Of a stretch of DNA of 8,949 nucleotides, positions 489 through 8,949 are shown one piece after another. How positions within the stretch are numbered: position 1 is the stretch's first letter; each line of letters begins with the position of its first letter. The DNA comes from a virus (lineage: Duplodnaviria; Heunggongvirae; Uroviricota; Caudoviricetes), in the IMG/VR virus record IMGVR_UViG_2713896828_000008, one strand, 5' to 3'. The notes under the pieces are model-generated. The model had not been told where the DNA came from, did no database searches, and saw only the letters and a list, made by a program, of their open reading frames with translations. The translations under genes were made by a program, and so were the position numbers.

Positions 489-1070
489 ATGAAAAAACTG
501 GAGACGATAGGATTCGACACCAAAAAAGACCTGCTTATCTCGGTTGGCGATTTGGTCGATCGCGGTACAGAGAACGTCGAATGCCTGGAATTAATCACAT
601 TCCCCTGGTTCAGAGCTGTACGTGGAAACCATGAGCAAATGATGATTGATGGCTTATCAGAGCGCGGAAACGTCAATCACTGGATGCTTAATGGCGGTGG
701 CTGGTTCTTTAATATCGATTACGACAAAGAAATTCTGGCTAAAGATCTTGCCCATAAAGCAGATGAACTTCCGTTAATCATCGAACTGGTGAGCAAAGAT
801 AAAAAATATGTCATCTGCCACGCCGATTATCCTTGTGACGAATACGAATTTGGAAAGCCAGTTGATCATCAGCAGGTAATCTGGAACCGCGAACGAATCA
901 GCAACTCACAAGACGGGATCGTGAAAGAAATTAAAGGCGCGGACACGTTCATCTTTGGTCATACGCCAGCAGTGAAACCACTCAAGTTTGCCAACCAGAT
1001 GTATATAGATACCGGCGCAGTGTTCTGCGGAAACCTCACATTGATTCAGGTACAGGGAGAAGGCGCATGA
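489..1070 (+). CDS. Ser/Thr protein phosphatase, lambda NinI (ORF221) type, 5'-truncated and possibly inactive
   Basis: 193-aa ORF with metallophosphatase motifs GDLVDRG and RGNHE and near-identity to lambda phosphatase as I recall it. The ORF starts at a position equivalent to about residue 29 of the lambda protein, so the N-terminal GDxHG metal-binding motif is absent. In-frame stop at 405-407 and non-phosphatase sequence upstream; no Shine-Dalgarno before the ATG at 489. Stop overlaps the Q start (ATGA at 1067-1070). Confidence 0.8.
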
Positions 1071-1690
1071 GACTCGAAAGCGTAGCTAAATTTCATTCGC
1101 CAAAAAGCCCGATGATGAGCGACTCACCACGGGCCACGGCTTCTGACTCTCTTTCCGGTACTGATGTGATGGCTGCTATGGGGATGGCGCAATCACAAGC
1201 CGGATTCGGAATGGCTGCATTCTGCGGTAAGCATGAACTCAGCCAGAACGACAAACAAAAGGCTATCAACTATCTGATGCAATTTGCACACAAGGTATCG
1301 GGGAAATACCGTGGTGTGGCAAAGCTCGAAGGAAATACTAAGGCAAAGGTACTGCAAGTGCTCGCAACATTCGCTTATGCGGATTATTGCCGTAGTGCCG
1401 CGACGCCGGGCGCAAGATGCAGAGATTGCCACGGTACAGGCCGTGCGGTTGATATAGCAAAAACAGAGCAGTGGGGGAGAGTTGTTGAGAAAGAGTGCGG
1501 AAGATGCAAAGGTGTCGGCTATTCAAGAATGCCAGCAAGCGCAGCATATCGCGCTGTAACGATTCTAATCCCAAACCTTACTCAACCCACATGGTCACGC
1601 ACTGTTAAGCCGCTGTATGACGCTCTGGTGGTGCAATGCCACAAAGAAGAGTCAATCGCAGACAACATTTTGAATTCGGTCACACGTTAG
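1067..1690 (+). CDS. Q: late-gene antiterminator Q (lambda type), 207 aa
   Basis: Full-length [31 protein letters not shown]... with zinc-binding CRDCHGTG...CGRCKG, essentially the lambda Q protein as recalled. Sits immediately upstream of a PR'-like promoter and the lysis cassette. Confidence 0.93.
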
Positions 1691-1732: not shown

Positions 1733-1761
1733 TTGACTTTTTGAATAAAGTTGGGTAAATT
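1733..1761 (+). promoter_or_regulatory. PR'-like late promoter with overlapping Q-utilisation (qut) region
   Basis: -35 TTGACT at 1733-1738 and -10 TAAATT at 1756-1761 with a 17-nt spacer, followed by TTGACCCAACGATGG, which resembles the lambda PR' initial transcribed region. Position (about 45 nt after the Q stop) matches lambda organisation. Confidence 0.6.
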
Positions 1762-1796
1762 TGACCCAACGATGGATAAATGCACTCGTTAAATAA

Positions 1797-1830
1797 AGCC
1801 CTGAGTTAATAGCTCGGGGCTTTTTGCGTT
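1797..1830 (+). terminator. intrinsic terminator in the late leader (tR'-equivalent)
   Basis: Hairpin 1797-1805 AGCCCTGAG pairing with 1813-1821 CTCGGGGCT (9 bp, one G-U wobble, 7-nt loop) followed by TTTTTGCGTTTT at 1821-1830. Confidence 0.6.
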
Positions 1831-2447: not shown

Positions 2448-2907
2448 TCAACGTAAGGCGTTCCTCGATATGCTGGCGTGGTCAGAGGGAACTGATAACG
2501 GACGACAGAAAACCAGAAATCATGGTTATGACGTCATTGTTGGCGGAGAGCTATTCACTGATTACTCCGATCACCCTCGCAAACTTGTCACGCTAAACCC
2601 AAAACTCAAATCAACAGCAGCCGGACGTTACCAGCTTCTTTCCCGTTGGTGGGATGCCTACCGCAAGCAGCTTGGACTGAAAGACTTCTCTCCGAAAAGC
2701 CAGGACGCTGTGGCATTGCAGCAGATTAAGGAGCGTGGCGCTTTGCCGATGATTGATCGTGGTGATATTCGTCAGGCAATCGACCGTTGCAGCAATATCT
2801 GGGCTTCACTGCCTGGGGCTGGTTATGGTCAGTTCGAGCATAAGGCTGACAGCCTGATTGCAAAATTCAAAGAAGCAGGGGGAACGGTCAGAGAGATTGA
2901 GGTATGA
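2431..2907 (+). CDS. R: endolysin R (lambda-type lytic transglycosylase), 158 aa
   Basis: [51 protein letters not shown]... matches lambda R as recalled. Start overlaps the S end by 17 nt, as in lambda. Confidence 0.95.
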
Positions 2908-3341
2908 GCAGAGTCACCGCGATTATCTCCGCTCTGGTTATCTGCATCATCGTCTGTCTGTCATGGGCTGTTAATCATTACCGTGATAACGCCATCGCCT
3001 ATAAAGAACAGCGCGATAAAGCCACGTACATCATCGCTGACATGCAGAAGCGTCAACGTGATGTAGCAGAACTCGACGCCAGATACACAAAGGAGCTTGC
3101 TGATGCTAACGCGACTATCGAAAGTCTCCGTGCTGATGTTTCTGCTGGGCGTAAGCGCCTGCAAGTCGCCGCCACCTGTGCAAGGTCAACGACCAGAGCC
3201 AGCGGCATGGGCGATGGAGAAAGCCCAGGACTTACAGCAGATGCTGAACTCAATTATTACCGTCTCCGAAGTGGAATCGACAAGATAACCGCGCAGGTTA
3301 ACTACCTGCAGGAATACATCAGGATGCAATGCCTGAAATGA
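2904..3341 (+). CDS. Rz: i-spanin Rz, 145 aa
   Basis: N-terminal transmembrane segment ([18 protein letters not shown]) then a charged coiled-coil-like periplasmic domain. Start overlaps the R stop (ATGA at 2904-2907). More diverged from lambda Rz than S and R are from their lambda counterparts. Confidence 0.9.
3103..3288 (+). CDS. Rz1: o-spanin Rz1, lipoprotein embedded in the +1 frame of Rz
   Basis: ATG at 3103 preceded by AAGGAG at 3090-3095. Signal peptide [20 protein letters not shown] with a lipobox (VSAC), then a proline-rich mature region [14 protein letters not shown]. The track ORF 3097..3288 starts at an upstream TTG; the ATG at 3103 is preferred. Confidence 0.8.
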
Positions 3342-3377
3342 TCGGGCGATGAAAACCAAAAAAAACAGGAGCAATAC

Positions 3378-3653
3378 ATGACTAAGCTTTATCACCGCAT
3401 CTCAACTTTTCTCTCTGGTTGCTGGGCGTTTATCACGTCTATTTCGTTCGCCATCTTTAGTTTCGGTAGCACAGCGTGCTCGCTTAGTCGGGGTCTGTGG
3501 CGTGCTATTTCAGCACTAGCGCCGAAATTTTTACCTGAAAAGGCTGTTTGGCGAATTGTAGAGCGAATGTGTAGTGAGAGCGTTCGCGAGAAGATTAACG
3601 TATTTGGACGTCATCCTCGAAATACAGGCGCATTGTGCAGTCCGTTACTGTAG
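3378..3653 (+). CDS. hypothetical small protein, 91 aa, hydrophobic Cys-containing N-terminus (possible membrane or lipoprotein), function unknown
   Basis: Strong SD (CAGGAGCAATAC-ATG). N-terminus MTKLYHRISTFLSGCWAFITSISFAIFSFGSTAC is a basic n-region plus a long hydrophobic stretch ending in STAC. No recognisable similarity to lambda Bor, which occupies this position in lambda. Confidence 0.5.
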   Translation: MTKLYHRISTFLSGCWAFITSISFAIFSFGSTACSLSRGLWRAISALAPKFLPEKAVWRIVERMCSESVREKINVFGRHPRNTGALCSPLL

Positions 3654-3745
3654 TCATTCCAAATCCCATCTACGGGTGGGCTTGATAATGAAACCGTGAT
3701 TTACATCCCCACAATCCGGGTATGTAAAAGATAGTTCAGGCGAGA

Positions 3746-3765
3746 ACAGATTTAACTAAATCTGT
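3746..3765. repeat. perfect 20-bp palindrome ACAGATTTA-AC-TAAATCTGT, candidate operator for a dimeric DNA-binding protein
   Basis: Arms 3746-3754 and 3757-3765 are exact reverse complements (9 bp each, 2-bp spacer). It sits in a 283-bp intergenic gap, and no U-tract follows on either strand, so it is not a simple terminator. Confidence 0.5.
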
Positions 3766-3936
3766 GCACCACCAGTTGCGGCAGTACAGCGAAACAACCC
3801 AAGCCAGAAAGTGGGGAAATAACACTGGCAGCCACTGAAAGATGAACCTCCAGCCTTATGGCAAAAAAGATTCTTTGTGGTGGCGGACTGATGGAAAGAC
3901 ATCCTAATCAAGCAACCACTCTACAGGGTCATAATT

Positions 3937-4305
3937 ATGAACGACAAGCAAATTGAAAAAGAAATCGCAGCCAAGGGTAAGGCGGCTCGCGTTACTCCTG
4001 AACACATTGCCAGCATAATCGCCAGCGAACATTACTTTACGGCCGCTGATGGTGCTCGCTTTGCTCATGTGCAGAGAAGCGAAACATACAGCGTAAAAAT
4101 CCCAGACCAGCCTGACGAGCTGGAGCTGCTGACATTCTGCGTTCTGGTGCTGAAGAATGGCTTTACGGTCACCGGGGAAAGCGCCTGCGCCAGCCCAGAG
4201 AACTTCGATGAAGAAATCGGGCGCAAGATTGCTCGCCAGAATGCTGTAAACAAAATCTGGATGCTCGAAGGTTACTTGCTGAAGCAGAAGCTAAGCGAAC
4301 AGTAG
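3937..4305 (+). CDS. hypothetical phage protein, 122 aa (possibly Gp49-like family, unverified)
   Basis: Clean ORF MNDKQIEKEIAAKGKAARVTPEHIASIIASEHYF...LTFCVLVLKNGFTVTGESACASPENFDEEIGRKIARQNAVNKIW. Resembles small conserved proteins found near lysis and packaging genes of enterobacterial prophages. Family name is from memory only. Confidence 0.6.
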   Translation: MNDKQIEKEIAAKGKAARVTPEHIASIIASEHYFTAADGARFAHVQRSETYSVKIPDQPDELELLTFCVLVLKNGFTVTGESACASPENFDEEIGRKIARQNAVNKIWMLEGYLLKQKLSEQ

Positions 4306-4408
4306 TTATTACAAAAGCCATTCCCTACAGAGTGGCTTTGATAATGGCTTATACCCTACACGGGATAACTTAACTGATATCCCTTTTAACGGATAAACGG
4401 AGCCAACA

Positions 4409-4651
4409 ATGGCAGAGATTATTCCCATGACTGAAGAACAGAAATTCCAGCTAGAGATTTACAAACTGGTCATGAACCAGAACGCAGCCGCAGAGGAAGC
4501 ATTTCAATTTATTGGCACTGACGAACTGAAGCTTGAGCTATTCAAAATTCACTTCCAGTCAGGCGGCGCTAATTCAGATATCACGACCCGCACAATCGAA
4601 GCGGTGCGTAAATCGAAGGAAGCGTTAGACCTGTTCACTACCGGAGCATAA
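4409..4651 (+). CDS. hypothetical protein, 80 aa, acidic and probably helical, first gene of the packaging operon
   Basis: SD ACGGAG 7 nt upstream of the ATG. Stop at 4649-4651 lies 2 nt before the terS ATG, suggesting translational coupling. Confidence 0.55.
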   Translation: MAEIIPMTEEQKFQLEIYKLVMNQNAAAEEAFQFIGTDELKLELFKIHFQSGGANSDITTRTIEAVRKSKEALDLFTTGA

Positions 4652-4653
4652 AC

Positions 4654-5094
4654 ATGGCGCGCCCAACAAAGTATCAAGAGGCGTATGCCGAACAGGCACG
4701 CAAACTGTGCTTGCTGGGCTACACCGATGCAGAGCTTGCTGATTTCTTCGAAGTCAGTGAGTCAACTATTAACAAGTGGAAGCTCGATTATCCTAAGTTT
4801 TCGGAGTCCATAAAAAAGGGTAAGGCCGTCGCTGATGCAGAAGTTAGTGACCGTCTTTATCAACGCGCTATGGGCTTCGTGGCTCCAGACATCGATATTC
4901 GTGTTATTGAAAACAGAATTGTCGAAACTCCGCTTGAGAAGTATTACCCGCCTGATACAACAGCTGCCATCTTCTGGCTTAAGAACCGACAGAAGGATAA
5001 ATGGCGCGACAAGGTTGATCACGAGCTAACAGGCAAAGACGGCGGCGCAATTCAGATTGAAACATCACCGATGAGCACTCTATTCGGAAAATGA
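4654..5094 (+). CDS. terminase small subunit (TerS), putative, 146 aa
   Basis: Position immediately upstream of terL with ATGA overlap (5091-5094), SD GGAG upstream, HTH-like N-terminus (GYTDAELADFFEVSESTINKW), size typical of P22/Sf6-type small terminases. Confidence 0.6.
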   Translation: MARPTKYQEAYAEQARKLCLLGYTDAELADFFEVSESTINKWKLDYPKFSESIKKGKAVADAEVSDRLYQRAMGFVAPDIDIRVIENRIVETPLEKYYPPDTTAAIFWLKNRQKDKWRDKVDHELTGKDGGAIQIETSPMSTLFGK

Positions 5095-6314
5095 CCTCGA
5101 TTAATCCTATCTTTGAACCGTTCATTGAGGCGCATCGCTACAAAGTCGCCAAAGGCGGTCGAGGTAGCGGTAAGTCATGGGCAATTGCTAGGCTGCTTGT
5201 TGAAGCGGCGCGTCGTCAGCCAGTGCGTATTCTCTGCGCTCGTGAACTGCAAAACAGTATCAGCGATTCGGTAATCCGGTTGCTTGAAGATACCATCGAG
5301 CGGGAAGGGTATTCGGCTGAGTTTGAAATTCAGCGTTCAATGATTCGTCATCTCGGTACGAATGCTGAATTCATGTTCTACGGCATCAAAAACAACCCGA
5401 CGAAGATTAAATCGCTCGAAGGCATTGATATCTGCTGGGTGGAAGAAGCGGAAGCGGTAACGAAGGAATCATGGGATATCCTGATACCAACCATCCGCAA
5501 GCCGTTTTCCGAAATATGGGTGAGCTTTAACCCGAAAAACATCCTCGACGATACCTATCAGCGATTCGTCGTAAATCCTCCCGATGATATTTGTCTGCTG
5601 ACAGTGAACTACACCGACAACCCGCACTTTCCTGAAGTTCTCCGTCTGGAGATGGAAGAGTGTAAACGCAGAAATCCGACACTGTATCGTCACATCTGGC
5701 TTGGTGAGCCAGTAAGCGCAAGTGATATGGCAATCATCAAACGTGAATGGCATGAAGCCGCAACCGATGCGCACAAGAAACTCGGATGGAAAGCGAAAGG
5801 CGCTGTTGTCTCTGCGCATGACCCATCAGATACAGGGCCAGATGCTAAAGGTTATGCATCGCGTCACGGTTCGGTAGTTAAGCGCATTGCTGAAGGTCTG
5901 CTGATGGACATCAACGAGGGTGCTGACTGGGCTACTTCGCTGGCGATTGAAGACGGTGCTGACCACTACCTGTGGGATGGCGATGGCGTTGGTGCCGGGC
6001 TACGCAGACAGACAACGGAAGCGTTCTCCGGCAAGAAAATCACCGCCACGATGTTCAAGGGCAGCGAATCGCCATTCGATGAAGATGCTCCGTATCAGGC
6101 CGGAGCATGGGCTGATGAAGTAGTACAGGGCGACAACGTTCGCACTATTGGCGATGTGTTCCGCAATAAGCGAGCGCAATTCTATTACGCGCTGGCTGAC
6201 AGGCTGTATCTAACCTGCAGAAGCTTGGTAAGGTTGCTGATAACGAGACTATTTCAAAACTTCAGTCCTATCGTGATGAGCTTGTTCGCAATGCTGGTCC
6301 AGATGGTCCGGTAA
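5091..6314 (+). CDS. terminase large subunit (TerL), C-terminally disrupted; ATPase domain intact
   Basis: Walker A VAKGGRGSGKS and Walker B-like DICWVEEAE. N-terminus resembles P22/Sf6-type large terminases as recalled. The last ~30 codons (about 6215-6314, ...LTCRSLVRLLITRLFQNFSPIVMSLFAMLVQMVR) look like out-of-frame low-complexity sequence and the ORF is about 60-90 aa short of typical TerL length. Likely a pseudogene or truncated allele. Confidence 0.85.
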   Translation: MTSINPIFEPFIEAHRYKVAKGGRGSGKSWAIARLLVEAARRQPVRILCARELQNSISDSVIRLLEDTIEREGYSAEFEIQRSMIRHLGTNAEFMFYGIKNNPTKIKSLEGIDICWVEEAEAVTKESWDILIPTIRKPFSEIWVSFNPKNILDDTYQRFVVNPPDDICLLTVNYTDNPHFPEVLRLEMEECKRRNPTLYRHIWLGEPVSASDMAIIKREWHEAATDAHKKLGWKAKGAVVSAHDPSDTGPDAKGYASRHGSVVKRIAEGLLMDINEGADWATSLAIEDGADHYLWDGDGVGAGLRRQTTEAFSGKKITATMFKGSESPFDEDAPYQAGAWADEVVQGDNVRTIGDVFRNKRAQFYYALADRLYLTCRSLVRLLITRLFQNFSPIVMSLFAMLVQMVR

Positions 6315-6997
6315 ATCTGGATTTGAAGCAATTAAGCGATCTGCGCAGCCAGTTCAGAATGGACGTGAAGGGTGAGCGACCAGTGTTACCAAACCGTTCC
6401 GATGCTGCCATTCAGCGCGTTTACAAGGCAATGACTGACGATATCAATGGTGCCATTGGTCAGAATCTTGGCAACGATACTCTCCGTAAATATCAGCAGG
6501 CCAATGCCGTCTACGCTGACGAAGCGGCGAAGCTAAAGAATACCAGGCTGAAGAATGTTCTCATGAAAGGCGACCTGACGCCGGAAGTTGTCAACAACAT
6601 GCTATTCAGCAAGAACAAATCGGAAATTAAGACGCTGTATAACTCAGTTGGTCGTGTTGGCAGGGCGCAAATGCGCAATGGCATCATTGGAAAGGCGATG
6701 GAGAAATCTGGCGGATCCCCTGACCAGTTCCTTCGGCAGCTTAACATCCTGCAAAACCAGACTGGCATCACATTTAAGGGGCAGGACGCTGCTTATCTGA
6801 AAGGATTGAAAAAATACCTTCAGTCCACTCAGCAGGCAGCAAAAGCGGCAGTAACAACACCAACAGGGCAGCAAACCATCCCGTTCATTATCGGGTATGG
6901 GACGGCAACGAACCCGGCGACAACTGGCGCAGCAGTAAGCTACGGACTTCTTACTCGCGCCTATGAGAGCGAACCATTCAGAAATGCAATGCTCTGA
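6200..6997 (+). pseudogene. 5'-deleted fragment of an unrelated phage protein (virion, ejection or tail-associated; speculative) joined to truncated terL
   Basis: Frame-2 reading frame is open from 6200 with no plausible start or SD (first ATG at 6359; the track start at 6323 is a TTG). Translation ...LQKLGKVADNETISKLQSYRDELVRNAGPDGPVNLDLKQLSDLRSQF...GQQTIPFIIGYGTATNPATTGAAVSYGLL... is coiled-coil, Q/A/T-rich and not terminase-like. Confidence 0.4.
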
Positions 6998-7196
6998 ATG
7001 GCAAATACCCCACGCGGATCAACAGCGTTTGAGAAAGCCTTGCAGCAGGCACAAAAGGCAATTAACGCGCTGACCCAAGGCGCTAAGTCTGATGCGTTGT
7101 CTGAATAGTTTCGAAAACACCAGGAACGTGCAAAAACCAAATATGTAGAACGCAATATTCAACAGATCTCTTTGCATAGACTCATCTCATAATTAA

Positions 7197-8949
<1,753 letters not shown>

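Follow-up and report, generated by a model that had tools for sequence, protein, structure and literature searches.

Introduction

Acb4 (gp1.3) of Bacillus phage SPO1 is a tetrameric sponge with four bound molecules of 3′3′-cyclic GMP-AMP (3′3′-cGAMP), and it is alone enough to defeat a cyclic-oligonucleotide-based antiphage signaling system (CBASS) (Chang et al., bioRxiv 10.1101/2024.12.30.630793). The Acb4 family, which these authors equate with PF13876, has a fold likened to double-stranded (ds) RNA-binding domains; cGAMP was bound by eight of eight purified homologs, and 3′3′-cyclic di-AMP (c-di-AMP) was bound as well only by those from phages of Gram-negative bacteria (bioRxiv 10.1101/2024.12.30.630793). 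Another Acb4 protein, gp49 of coliphage N4, has a dissociation constant of 111 nM for c-di-AMP and also sets off PanDA, a guard system (bioRxiv 10.64898/2026.08.10.743972). Here we analyze a predicted member of this family, ORF122, encoded together with two other small open reading frames (ORFs), ORF91 and ORF80, between the spanin genes and the small terminase gene (terS) of a tailed-phage element (positions 3342–4653 of IMG/VR record IMGVR_UViG_2713896828_000008; the whole 8,949-nt stretch analyzed is termed the window).

The site has been described in relatives. In P22, the same interval (the pid locus, orf25–orf80) is a moron locus, and relatives are without the insert or carry a different one (Cenens et al., 2013; Wolput et al., 2022). 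It shares with the window a conserved noncoding element, a hairpin (linker 2) and the DUF2560 gene, but pid, which derepresses the host dgo operon, is read from the opposite strand and brings a promoter and a terminator of its own; in the window, pid is absent and a sense-strand acb4 gene occupies a neighboring slot. Lambda bor and other classical morons resemble the window genes as non-essential cargo of the lysis-to-packaging region. Both bor and pid, however, are expressed in the prophage from their own promoters and on the opposite strand, whereas the window genes are co-oriented with the late operon. The families of ORF122 and ORF80 recur in this order in Shigella phage Sf6 (genes 66 and 67), where they likewise lie upstream of the small terminase gene and share the intergenic linkers of the window. 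Sf6 differs from the window by a 50-aa gene 65 in place of ORF91 and by an extra small gene 68 before terS, and HK620 (DUF2560 gene hkbM) differs by having no Acb4 gene.

It is probable, in our view, that a defective P22/Sf6-like prophage has here, between the lysis and packaging genes of its late operon, a cargo region with three independent, exchangeable genes, of which ORF122 encodes an Acb4 sponge. Two hairpin linkers and a conserved ∼125-nt element would delimit three cargo slots, namely slot A (Rz to hairpin 1), slot B (conserved element to hairpin 2) and slot C (hairpin 2 to DUF2560). The locus is mostly explained by what was already known (the Acb4 family of ORF122, the family of P22 orf80 and the interval as a recognized moron site), and the residual novelty, which lies in ORF91, the hairpin linkers and the ∼125-nt element, is modest.

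ORF122 is a predicted Acb4-family sponge

The PF13876 profile ('N4 Gp49 / Sf6 gene 66') matched ORF122 from end to end (profile 1–82/82, residues 19–119) with 126.2 bits (cut-off 27; E = 7.4e-37). A search of the Protein Data Bank (PDB) with the single sequence (phmmer) returned one meaningful match, 9e4w, 'anti-CBASS 4 (Acb4)', at E = 0.0035, and a profile of 10 family members, with SPO1 left out, matched the same entry at E = 2.6e-9 (chain residues 15–86). ORF122 is 52% identical to N4 gp49, 27% to SPO1 Acb4 and 71% overall to Sf6 gp66, with one difference among the last 58 residues. Sf6 gp66 and the E. coli protein A0A6L6I6C2 are both in Table S3 of Chang et al. (bioRxiv 10.1101/2024.12.30.630793), and the latter is 99% identical to ORF122, differing by one inserted residue and one substitution. 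By these matches ORF122 is a member of the Acb4 family, already catalogued through a near-identical protein. A sequence-only reading of the window had counted three unknown genes here and guessed at an anti-defense role. In fact ORF122 and ORF80 fall into named Pfam families, that of ORF122 characterized since 2024, and the guess fits ORF122, given its place in an anti-CBASS sponge family (PF13876).

The residues that contact the ligand in the SPO1 co-crystal (K36, F48, E49, V56, Y57, F62, N63, I66, T70 and K81) were mapped onto ORF122. The aromatic/hydrophobic stacking pocket is kept, with SPO1 F48, F62 and I66 corresponding to F76, F90 and I94. ORF122 further shares with SPO1 gp1.3 and N4 gp49 the beta-core, the C-terminal helices, this pocket, phage origin and a size of ∼100–125 aa, and with N4 gp49 a Thr at the position of SPO1 E49; unlike both, it is extended at the N-terminus and has a variable insert at about residues 38–62. 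By homology, an ORF122 homotetramer would sequester cyclic-dinucleotide signals, namely 3′3′-cGAMP and, as a member of the Gram-negative clade, probably 3′3′-c-di-AMP, and this capture would leave CBASS effectors inactive during lytic growth.

Several points weigh against this assignment. Six of the 10 SPO1 ligand contacts are changed in ORF122 (K36L, E49T, V56C, Y57A, T70I and K81M), so that its ligand specificity is uncertain; in addition, N63, a backbone contact, is replaced by Asp. Among the changed contacts, only Thr for E49 and Cys for V56 are common to ORF122 and N4 gp49. The guanine-specific SPO1 residues K36 and E49 are Leu and Thr in ORF122, the Thr being that of N4 gp49, and a cGAMP/c-di-AMP specificity is plausible. 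Sponge activity is a prediction for both ORF122 and Sf6 gp66. As a late-operon gene of a temperate phage, ORF122 might come late for blocking CBASS, given that SPO1 Acb4 is active early in infection. The acb2 gene of a Pseudomonas phage also adjoins a capsid gene. Finally, the ribosome-binding site of ORF122 is weak (AGGG), and, in a prophage remnant such as this one, the genes may be silent.

ORF122 could also be a decaying or re-purposed relic, silent or binding RNA in the manner of dsRNA-binding domains instead of acting as a sponge, which we regard as quite unlikely. The absence of an early region from the prophage, the truncated TerL, the insertion sequence (IS) copies, the resemblance of the Acb4 fold to dsRNA-binding domains and the six altered contacts would all fit such a fate. 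The ORF, however, is intact and 100% conserved, its C-terminal sponge core is near-identical in Sf6 and epsilon15, both functional phages, and cGAMP was bound by eight of eight diverse family members (bioRxiv 10.1101/2024.12.30.630793). An Acb4 sponge is the assignment that we prefer for ORF122.

The 5′ half of the gene (3937–4120) is hypervariable among E. coli prophages, and the variable insert of the protein abuts the site of the SPO1 guanine contact K36, where it might tune specificity. A 12-nt perfect palindrome that spans the start codon (Table 1) may bear on translational control. For annotation, genes labeled 'Gp49 family protein' in hundreds of E. coli prophages by the Prokaryotic Genome Annotation Pipeline (PGAP) can be taken to encode predicted anti-CBASS sponges. 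Because PanDA, too, is triggered by Acb4 sponges of the Gram-negative clade, carriage of the gene could affect phage host range.

The three genes are exchanged separately

Much of what the sequence-only reading described is borne out: three plus-strand ORFs (Table 1) separated by gaps of exactly 283 bp (3654–3936) and 103 bp (4306–4408), with Rz/Rz1 upstream and the small terminase gene downstream; a palindrome and a repeated motif in the gaps; a hydrophobic, Cys-containing 91-aa product (four Cys, hydrophobic residues 8–30, isoelectric point (pI) 10.2); and an acidic 80-aa product (pI 4.7, with pI 5.6 for ORF122). The interval is a cargo site of lambdoid phages, as proposed, and none of the three proteins appears to have a lysis, packaging or structural role. 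Judged by conservation and family membership, all three are genuine genes rather than chance ORFs: ORF91 because it has 53 homologs of the same length and a low rate of nonsynonymous relative to synonymous change, and ORF122 and ORF80 because of their strong Pfam matches.

What did not survive is the view of the three genes as a cluster. We surveyed 5,426 complete E. coli genomes. ORF91 was present in 113 of them, the full acb4 allele in 50 (a partial one, the 3′ half at 80–90%, in 505) and DUF2560 in 899. Among phages, ORF91 occurs without acb4 in N7 and HK140, acb4 without ORF91 in Sf6, Huey and mEpX1, and DUF2560 as the sole one of the three in P22, HK620 and BTP1. Because the genome counts differ and every combination is found among phages, the three genes do not form one unit; by this distribution they are separately exchangeable cargo, occupying separate slots bounded by conserved linkers.

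The same data bear on whether the genes form one functional multi-component defense/anti-defense module, inherited and acting together. They are adjacent and co-oriented, the whole 1.3-kb block is contiguous at 100% identity in about 55 of the 5,426 genomes, and sponges are frequently encoded in clusters or as fusions with one another. The distributions, however, are up to 18-fold apart, the phages named above carry the genes singly or in part, and the scans against PADLOC and NCBIfam gave no match for any of the three proteins. The block carriers are 100% identical, with a similar chromosomal position in most of those listed, which is consistent with one lineage. We consider a joint module very unlikely, the distributions having already largely refuted it.

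Alignment of the first gap revealed identical junctions with different cargo across phages. Slot A holds ORF91, Sf6 gene 65, KilA-N plus hkbL, Rha or, in Huey, a Tad2-like protein; slot B holds acb4 or nothing; and slot C holds the minus-strand pid moron (P22/BTP1) or nothing. The Huey protein (PQ850609; L003:1924–2424, where L-numbers denote the compared loci) has a Tad2-like Thoeris sponge domain (PF11195, E = 1.7e-24) and lies beside an Acb4 homolog; the GenBank record calls both proteins 'anti-CRISPR protein', a label taken from Phold. These data suggest that (i) P22-like and HK97-like phages keep defined lysis-to-packaging cargo slots, which hold at least two sponge families (Acb4 and Tad2-like) and pid; and (ii) because the slots hold immune-signal sponges, the neighboring ORF91, DUF2560, Sf6 gene 65, hkbL and hkbN are reasonable candidates for an anti-defense screen.

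ORF80 is a DUF2560 protein encoded beside terS

ORF80 matched PF10834 (DUF2560) with 147.7 bits (cut-off 25; E = 1e-43) and is 99% identical to P22 orf80. The family is restricted to Enterobacteriaceae and near-invariant, and its position beside terS is fixed: the gene lies upstream of terS likewise in Sf6, HK620, BTP1 and P22. The ORF80 stop codon is 2 nt from the terS ATG in the window, whereas an extra small ORF lies between the two in Sf6, HK620 and P22. Presence at the same position in most P22-like phages (P22, Sf6, HK620 and BTP1) is what a routine late gene would show, yet DUF2560 is not a characterized routine late function. Deletions of P22 spanning orf25–orf80 give viable phage, and orf80 is therefore dispensable for P22 growth. 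The BTP1 homolog was seen by one peptide in D23580 proteomics. We read ORF80 as an accessory gene that is retained immediately before terS in P22-like phages.

The AlphaFold2 model of ORF80 is a four-helix bundle with a predicted local distance difference test score (pLDDT) of 87. A Foldseek search of the model against the PDB gave no significant match (best E = 2.0, template modeling score ≤0.41), the T4 Acb2 protein (Vs.4) standing at rank 21 with a non-significant E of 6; against BFVD, it matched only uncharacterized phage/viral proteins. Sequence searches of the PDB, with the single sequence and with a profile, returned noise only. We also considered whether ORF80 is a Sequestin-like (PF21825) sponge and rejected it: hhalign gave a probability of 0.2% for the DUF2560 alignment against seven Sequestins, and there was no PF21825 match at E ≤ 1.

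In HK97-like phages, DUF2560 is reduced to its first ∼45 codons, followed by an HNH endonuclease gene (HK140, L006:2107–2244; mEpX1, L007:2134–2271). The partial gene marks a within-gene recombination breakpoint between P22-like and HK97-like packaging modules.

ORF91 is a predicted membrane-anchored basic protein

ORF91, which would fill the slot directly after the spanin genes, matched phrog_34701, a family with no assigned function, over residues 1–91/91 (E = 7e-57), and an AGGAG motif lies 6–7 nt ahead of its ATG. Its 53 homologs are 55–73% identical and all about 91 aa long. In the C-terminal half, comparison with Enterobacter-type and metagenomic copies gave a proportion of nonsynonymous differences (pN) of 0.06–0.11 and a synonymous one (pS) of ∼0.77, which is saturated; the low pN relative to this pS indicates purifying selection on the protein. 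An exhaustive profile search of 1.84 billion proteins yielded just 15 clusters (50% identity), all of 87–93 aa apart from one 53-aa fragment, and no fusion to other domains was seen. In family members, the N-terminus is basic, and one or two hydrophobic segments lead into a conserved domain, also basic, with the pattern W..ER..(L/I)N.(F/Y)G...STG(A/S)L.(S/A)P. In ORF91 itself, an N-terminal hydrophobic anchor (about residues 8–30) precedes the conserved basic C-terminal domain (W58..ER..STGALCSP), and the protein is small and basic and is predicted to be membrane-anchored. We rejected a lipoprotein reading (LSGC at residues 12–15) on three grounds, namely an h-region of insufficient length, a hydrophobic stretch after the Cys and the lack of conservation of Cys15 in the wider family.

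Profile searches, which named the families of ORF122 and ORF80, gave no match for ORF91 in Pfam, NCBIfam, PADLOC or the PDB (the last with the single sequence and a profile), and its AlphaFold2 model (pLDDT 58) was too poor for a fold search. The gene has been systematically missed: PGAP annotation is absent in all 113 complete E. coli genomes that carry it, and at least that many are thus affected. The HK140 record annotates it as gp68.

The place of ORF91 raises the question of a lysis role, as a holin/antiholin-like timer or an envelope factor of the upstream cassette. The lysis cassette is always upstream of ORF91 family members, with the spanin genes directly before them, in four different contexts, and a protein of ∼90 aa that starts with one or two hydrophobic segments and ends in a basic tail has a holin-like architecture. 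Against this, an identical ORF91 protein follows three unrelated cassettes (holin_2/lysozyme/Rz, holin_3/GH19/LysC and holin_8/GH108), with no co-variation with lysis type; most related phages, such as Sf6, P22 and HK620, have no ORF91 and yet lyse normally; and the Pfam scan gave no holin-family hidden Markov model match. Since three unrelated cassette types precede the identical protein, ORF91 belongs to the cargo region rather than to one lysis system, and we consider a role within the upstream cassette unlikely.

A further possibility, which we regard as unlikely, is that ORF91 and/or DUF2560 are additional anti-defense proteins (sponges or inhibitors), the interval being an anti-defense island with independent members. 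Association points this way, since slot A contains a Tad2-like sponge in Huey and slot B an Acb4 gene; anti-CBASS genes tend to sit among small unknown genes; ORF91 and DUF2560 are small, phage-restricted and non-essential; and DUF2560 is short, acidic and helical, Sequestin sponges being helical and of 60–80 aa. DUF2560, however, has no detectable relation to Sequestin, as noted, or to any solved sponge, and it is near-invariant and fixed beside terS, unlike variable anti-defense cargo. The Tad2-like protein of coliphage Huey occupies the same slot directly after Rz as ORF91 and likewise lies beside an Acb4 homolog, but ORF91 has no similarity to Tad2 or other sponges and is a basic protein with a predicted membrane anchor, whereas known sponges are soluble and oligomeric. 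The supplements to the sponge-prediction paper from the Sorek lab mention neither DUF2560 nor ORF91. Independent cargo with a single predicted sponge, ORF122, is the reading that we retain. For ORF91, the most plausible roles, suggested with low confidence, are those of a membrane-acting lysis modifier or an anti-defense/exclusion factor.

Late-operon setting in a defective prophage

The window is identical (100%) to a prophage remnant beside sbcB in many E. coli chromosomes. In the upstream part of this remnant, PGAP calls a pseudogenized integrase, a partial NinI-like phosphatase, Q, a lambda-type holin, an endolysin and Rz, and the early and immunity regions are missing; downstream, it calls a 'Gp49 family protein', a 'DUF2560 family protein', the small terminase, a truncated large terminase, structural-gene fragments and an IS100 copy. 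In the window itself (5091–8949), TerL is truncated after about 380–407 codons and followed by lytic transglycosylase and tailspike gene fragments, with IS100 inserted (istA 7415–8437). The closest phages are Sf6, IME10, HK620, N7 and Huey. By gene order and closest phages, the host element is classified as a defective P22/Sf6-like (Lederbergvirus-type) lambdoid prophage.

A PR′-like late promoter and a strong, tR′-like terminator hairpin lie downstream of Q (Table 1), and the Sf6 and P22 records annotate their equivalents after Q; the whole interval is presumably transcribed from this PR′/tR′ arrangement. On the plus strand, the promoter scan matched only PR′ at 1733 and a site inside ORF122, leaving each of the three genes without a promoter-like site upstream, and a classical moron organization with an own sigma-70 promoter was therefore rejected. 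Since all three genes are sense-oriented and have no promoter-like site upstream, their expression would depend on transcription from PR′ with antitermination by Q. A simple consensus scan can miss weak promoters, and that of P22 pid fits the consensus poorly, which counts against late expression as the only mode.

Table 1. Genes and noncoding features in and around the Rz–terS interval (window coordinates; CM, covariance model)
Feature	Position	Strand	Match or source
Q, antitermination protein	1067–1690		annotation
PR′-like late promoter, TTGACT-17-TAAATT	1733–1761	+	promoter scan; downstream of Q
Strong terminator-like hairpin (tR′-like)	1795–1823	+	scan; downstream of Q
Rz spanin, end of lysis cassette	2904–3341	+	PF03245, E = 1e-33
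Rz1, embedded in Rz	3097–3288	+	PF06085, E = 4e-20
ORF91 (91 aa), slot A gene	3378–3653	+	phrog_34701
Hairpin linker 1, CATT(c)C-AA-stem-loop-stem-GA-TAATG, directly after ORF91 stop	3654–3693	+	CM R1, 54.8 bits, E = 3e-10; fold −12.9 kcal/mol
Palindrome ACAGATTTA-AC-TAAATCTGT, 9-bp perfect arms, 2-nt spacer	3746–3765	.	inspection of gap
Conserved noncoding element, ∼125 nt	3779–3903	+	93–98% identity, P22-like and HK97-like phages
Fully perfect 12-mer palindrome TCATAATTATGA	3929–3940		overlaps ORF122 start codon
ORF122 (122 aa), predicted cyclic-dinucleotide sponge, Acb4 family (Gp49 / Sf6 gene 66), cargo slot B	3937–4305	+	PF13876
Hairpin linker 2, TATTAC-AA-AAGCCATTC-loop-GAGTGGCTT-TGA-TAATG, directly after ORF122 stop	4306–4349	+	CM R1, 51.5 bits
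ORF80 (80 aa), DUF2560 (P22 orf80 / Sf6 gene 67 / HK620 hkbM)	4409–4651	+	PF10834
Small terminase subunit (terS)	4654–5094	+	phrog_309, E = 1e-67

Hairpin linkers and a conserved element at the cargo junctions

When the first gap was aligned with six phages, three parts were distinguished: a hairpin right after the stop codon of the upstream gene, a variable stretch of ∼30–90 nt, which includes the 9-bp-arm palindrome in the case of the window, and a near-invariant block of ∼125 nt. The second gap as a whole folds at z = −4.84 relative to shuffles. The repeated motif (GTGGGCTTGATAATG at 3676 and GTGGCTTTGATAATG at 4332), a 15-mer, has 2 matches where 0.04 are expected, a number reached in 0 of 200 shuffles; it is the 3′ side of the hairpin, and its second copy lies just after ORF122. 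A ∼60-nt segment with the 9-bp-arm palindrome is present in the window, Sf6 and HK620 and not in N7, HK140, mEpX1 and Huey.

A set of 14 distinct linker sequences was assembled from E. coli, Salmonella, Shigella and Enterobacter-type phages. The flanks are conserved (CATTA-CA ... GA-TAATG), and the stems vary in sequence yet remain paired: 95.7% of cells are paired, compared with 33–49% when the partners are slid, and compensatory changes on both sides occur in 7 of 15 stem pairs. Covariation of the stems argues for selection on linker structure and not on sequence identity alone, although the structure was derived from the same sequences that were used for the covariation count, which weakens the case. 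Many of the pairs are G-U, which would turn into A-C mismatches if the opposite strand were folded, and this favors a plus-strand RNA. The linker covariance model found at most two copies per phage, all in the Rz–terS interval; the rest of the Sf6 and P22 genomes had no copy, so that the linkers are not a genome-wide repeat family. Other copies lie at L012:2087–2126 and at L013:4277–4317 and 4664–4706.

Two simpler identities were discarded. The linkers do not qualify as intrinsic terminators, since the terminator scan called neither of them and the stems are followed by GAUAAUG with no U-run; one linker of an Enterobacter relative (L013, 4664–4706) does have UUUUUU. The linker GATAAT does not qualify as a −10 box, no suitably spaced −35 being found by inspection or by the promoter scan.

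The ∼125-nt element was found in 163 phage records, among them podoviruses (P22, ST64T/L, BTP1, Sf6 and HK620) and siphoviruses (HK97, HK022 and mEp phages), and in 1,123 of the 5,426 E. coli genomes, always between lysis and packaging genes, whatever cargo flanks it. Copies are seen in the P22 region (L011:1382–1506), HK97 (L009) and Sf6 (L002). Its three variable sites are all unpaired in a predicted plus-strand hairpin, which is compatible with a structured element. A coding role was rejected: a plus-strand ORF of 21 codons loses its ATG in HK140, and a minus-strand ORF of 45–51 codons has no consistent ribosome-binding site. The Rfam covariance scan gave no match at E ≤ 1 anywhere in 3342–4653, and the D23580/BTP1 transcriptome tables list no small RNA in the stretch from rha to pid. 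As far as could be found, neither the hairpin linkers nor this element had been described before.

Lambdoid phages reportedly carry conserved 'boundary sequences', said to have been proposed by Clark et al. in 2001 as recombination foci that reassort modules. The linkers and the ∼125-nt element resemble them in being short, conserved and located at module junctions. The seven described boundary sequences, however, are located elsewhere (bsq7 inside Rz), and the linkers are hairpins with covarying stems. The Sf6 record annotates bsq features, none of them in this interval. A bolder reading is that the Rz–terS interval is an organized counter-defense cassette array, in which every cargo gene would be closed by a hairpin with CATTA...TAATG flanks, and the hairpins and the ∼125-nt element, as RNA or single-stranded DNA structures, would act as signals for processing or stabilizing late RNA, or for recombination, that allow Acb4, Tad2-like, pid and ORF91 cargo to be swapped; ORF91 and/or DUF2560 would then be new anti-defense effectors. 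We regard this array as rather improbable, and the interval as a cargo region of independent genes remains our preferred explanation.

At the site of Sf6 bsq7 within Rz (2976–2991), the window reads CATTACCGTGATAA(c)G, which looks like two linker flanks joined with no inner stem; in Sf6 and N7 the sequence is CATTACCGTGATAATG, and the likeness to the linkers may be coincidence. The noncoding features also touch existing gene calls. P22 orf25 (L011:1530–1607) begins within hairpin linker 2, and orf118 of phage L/ST64T (L008:1590–1946) is a DUF2560 homolog over-extended upstream into the conserved noncoding element; both calls look like annotation artefacts.

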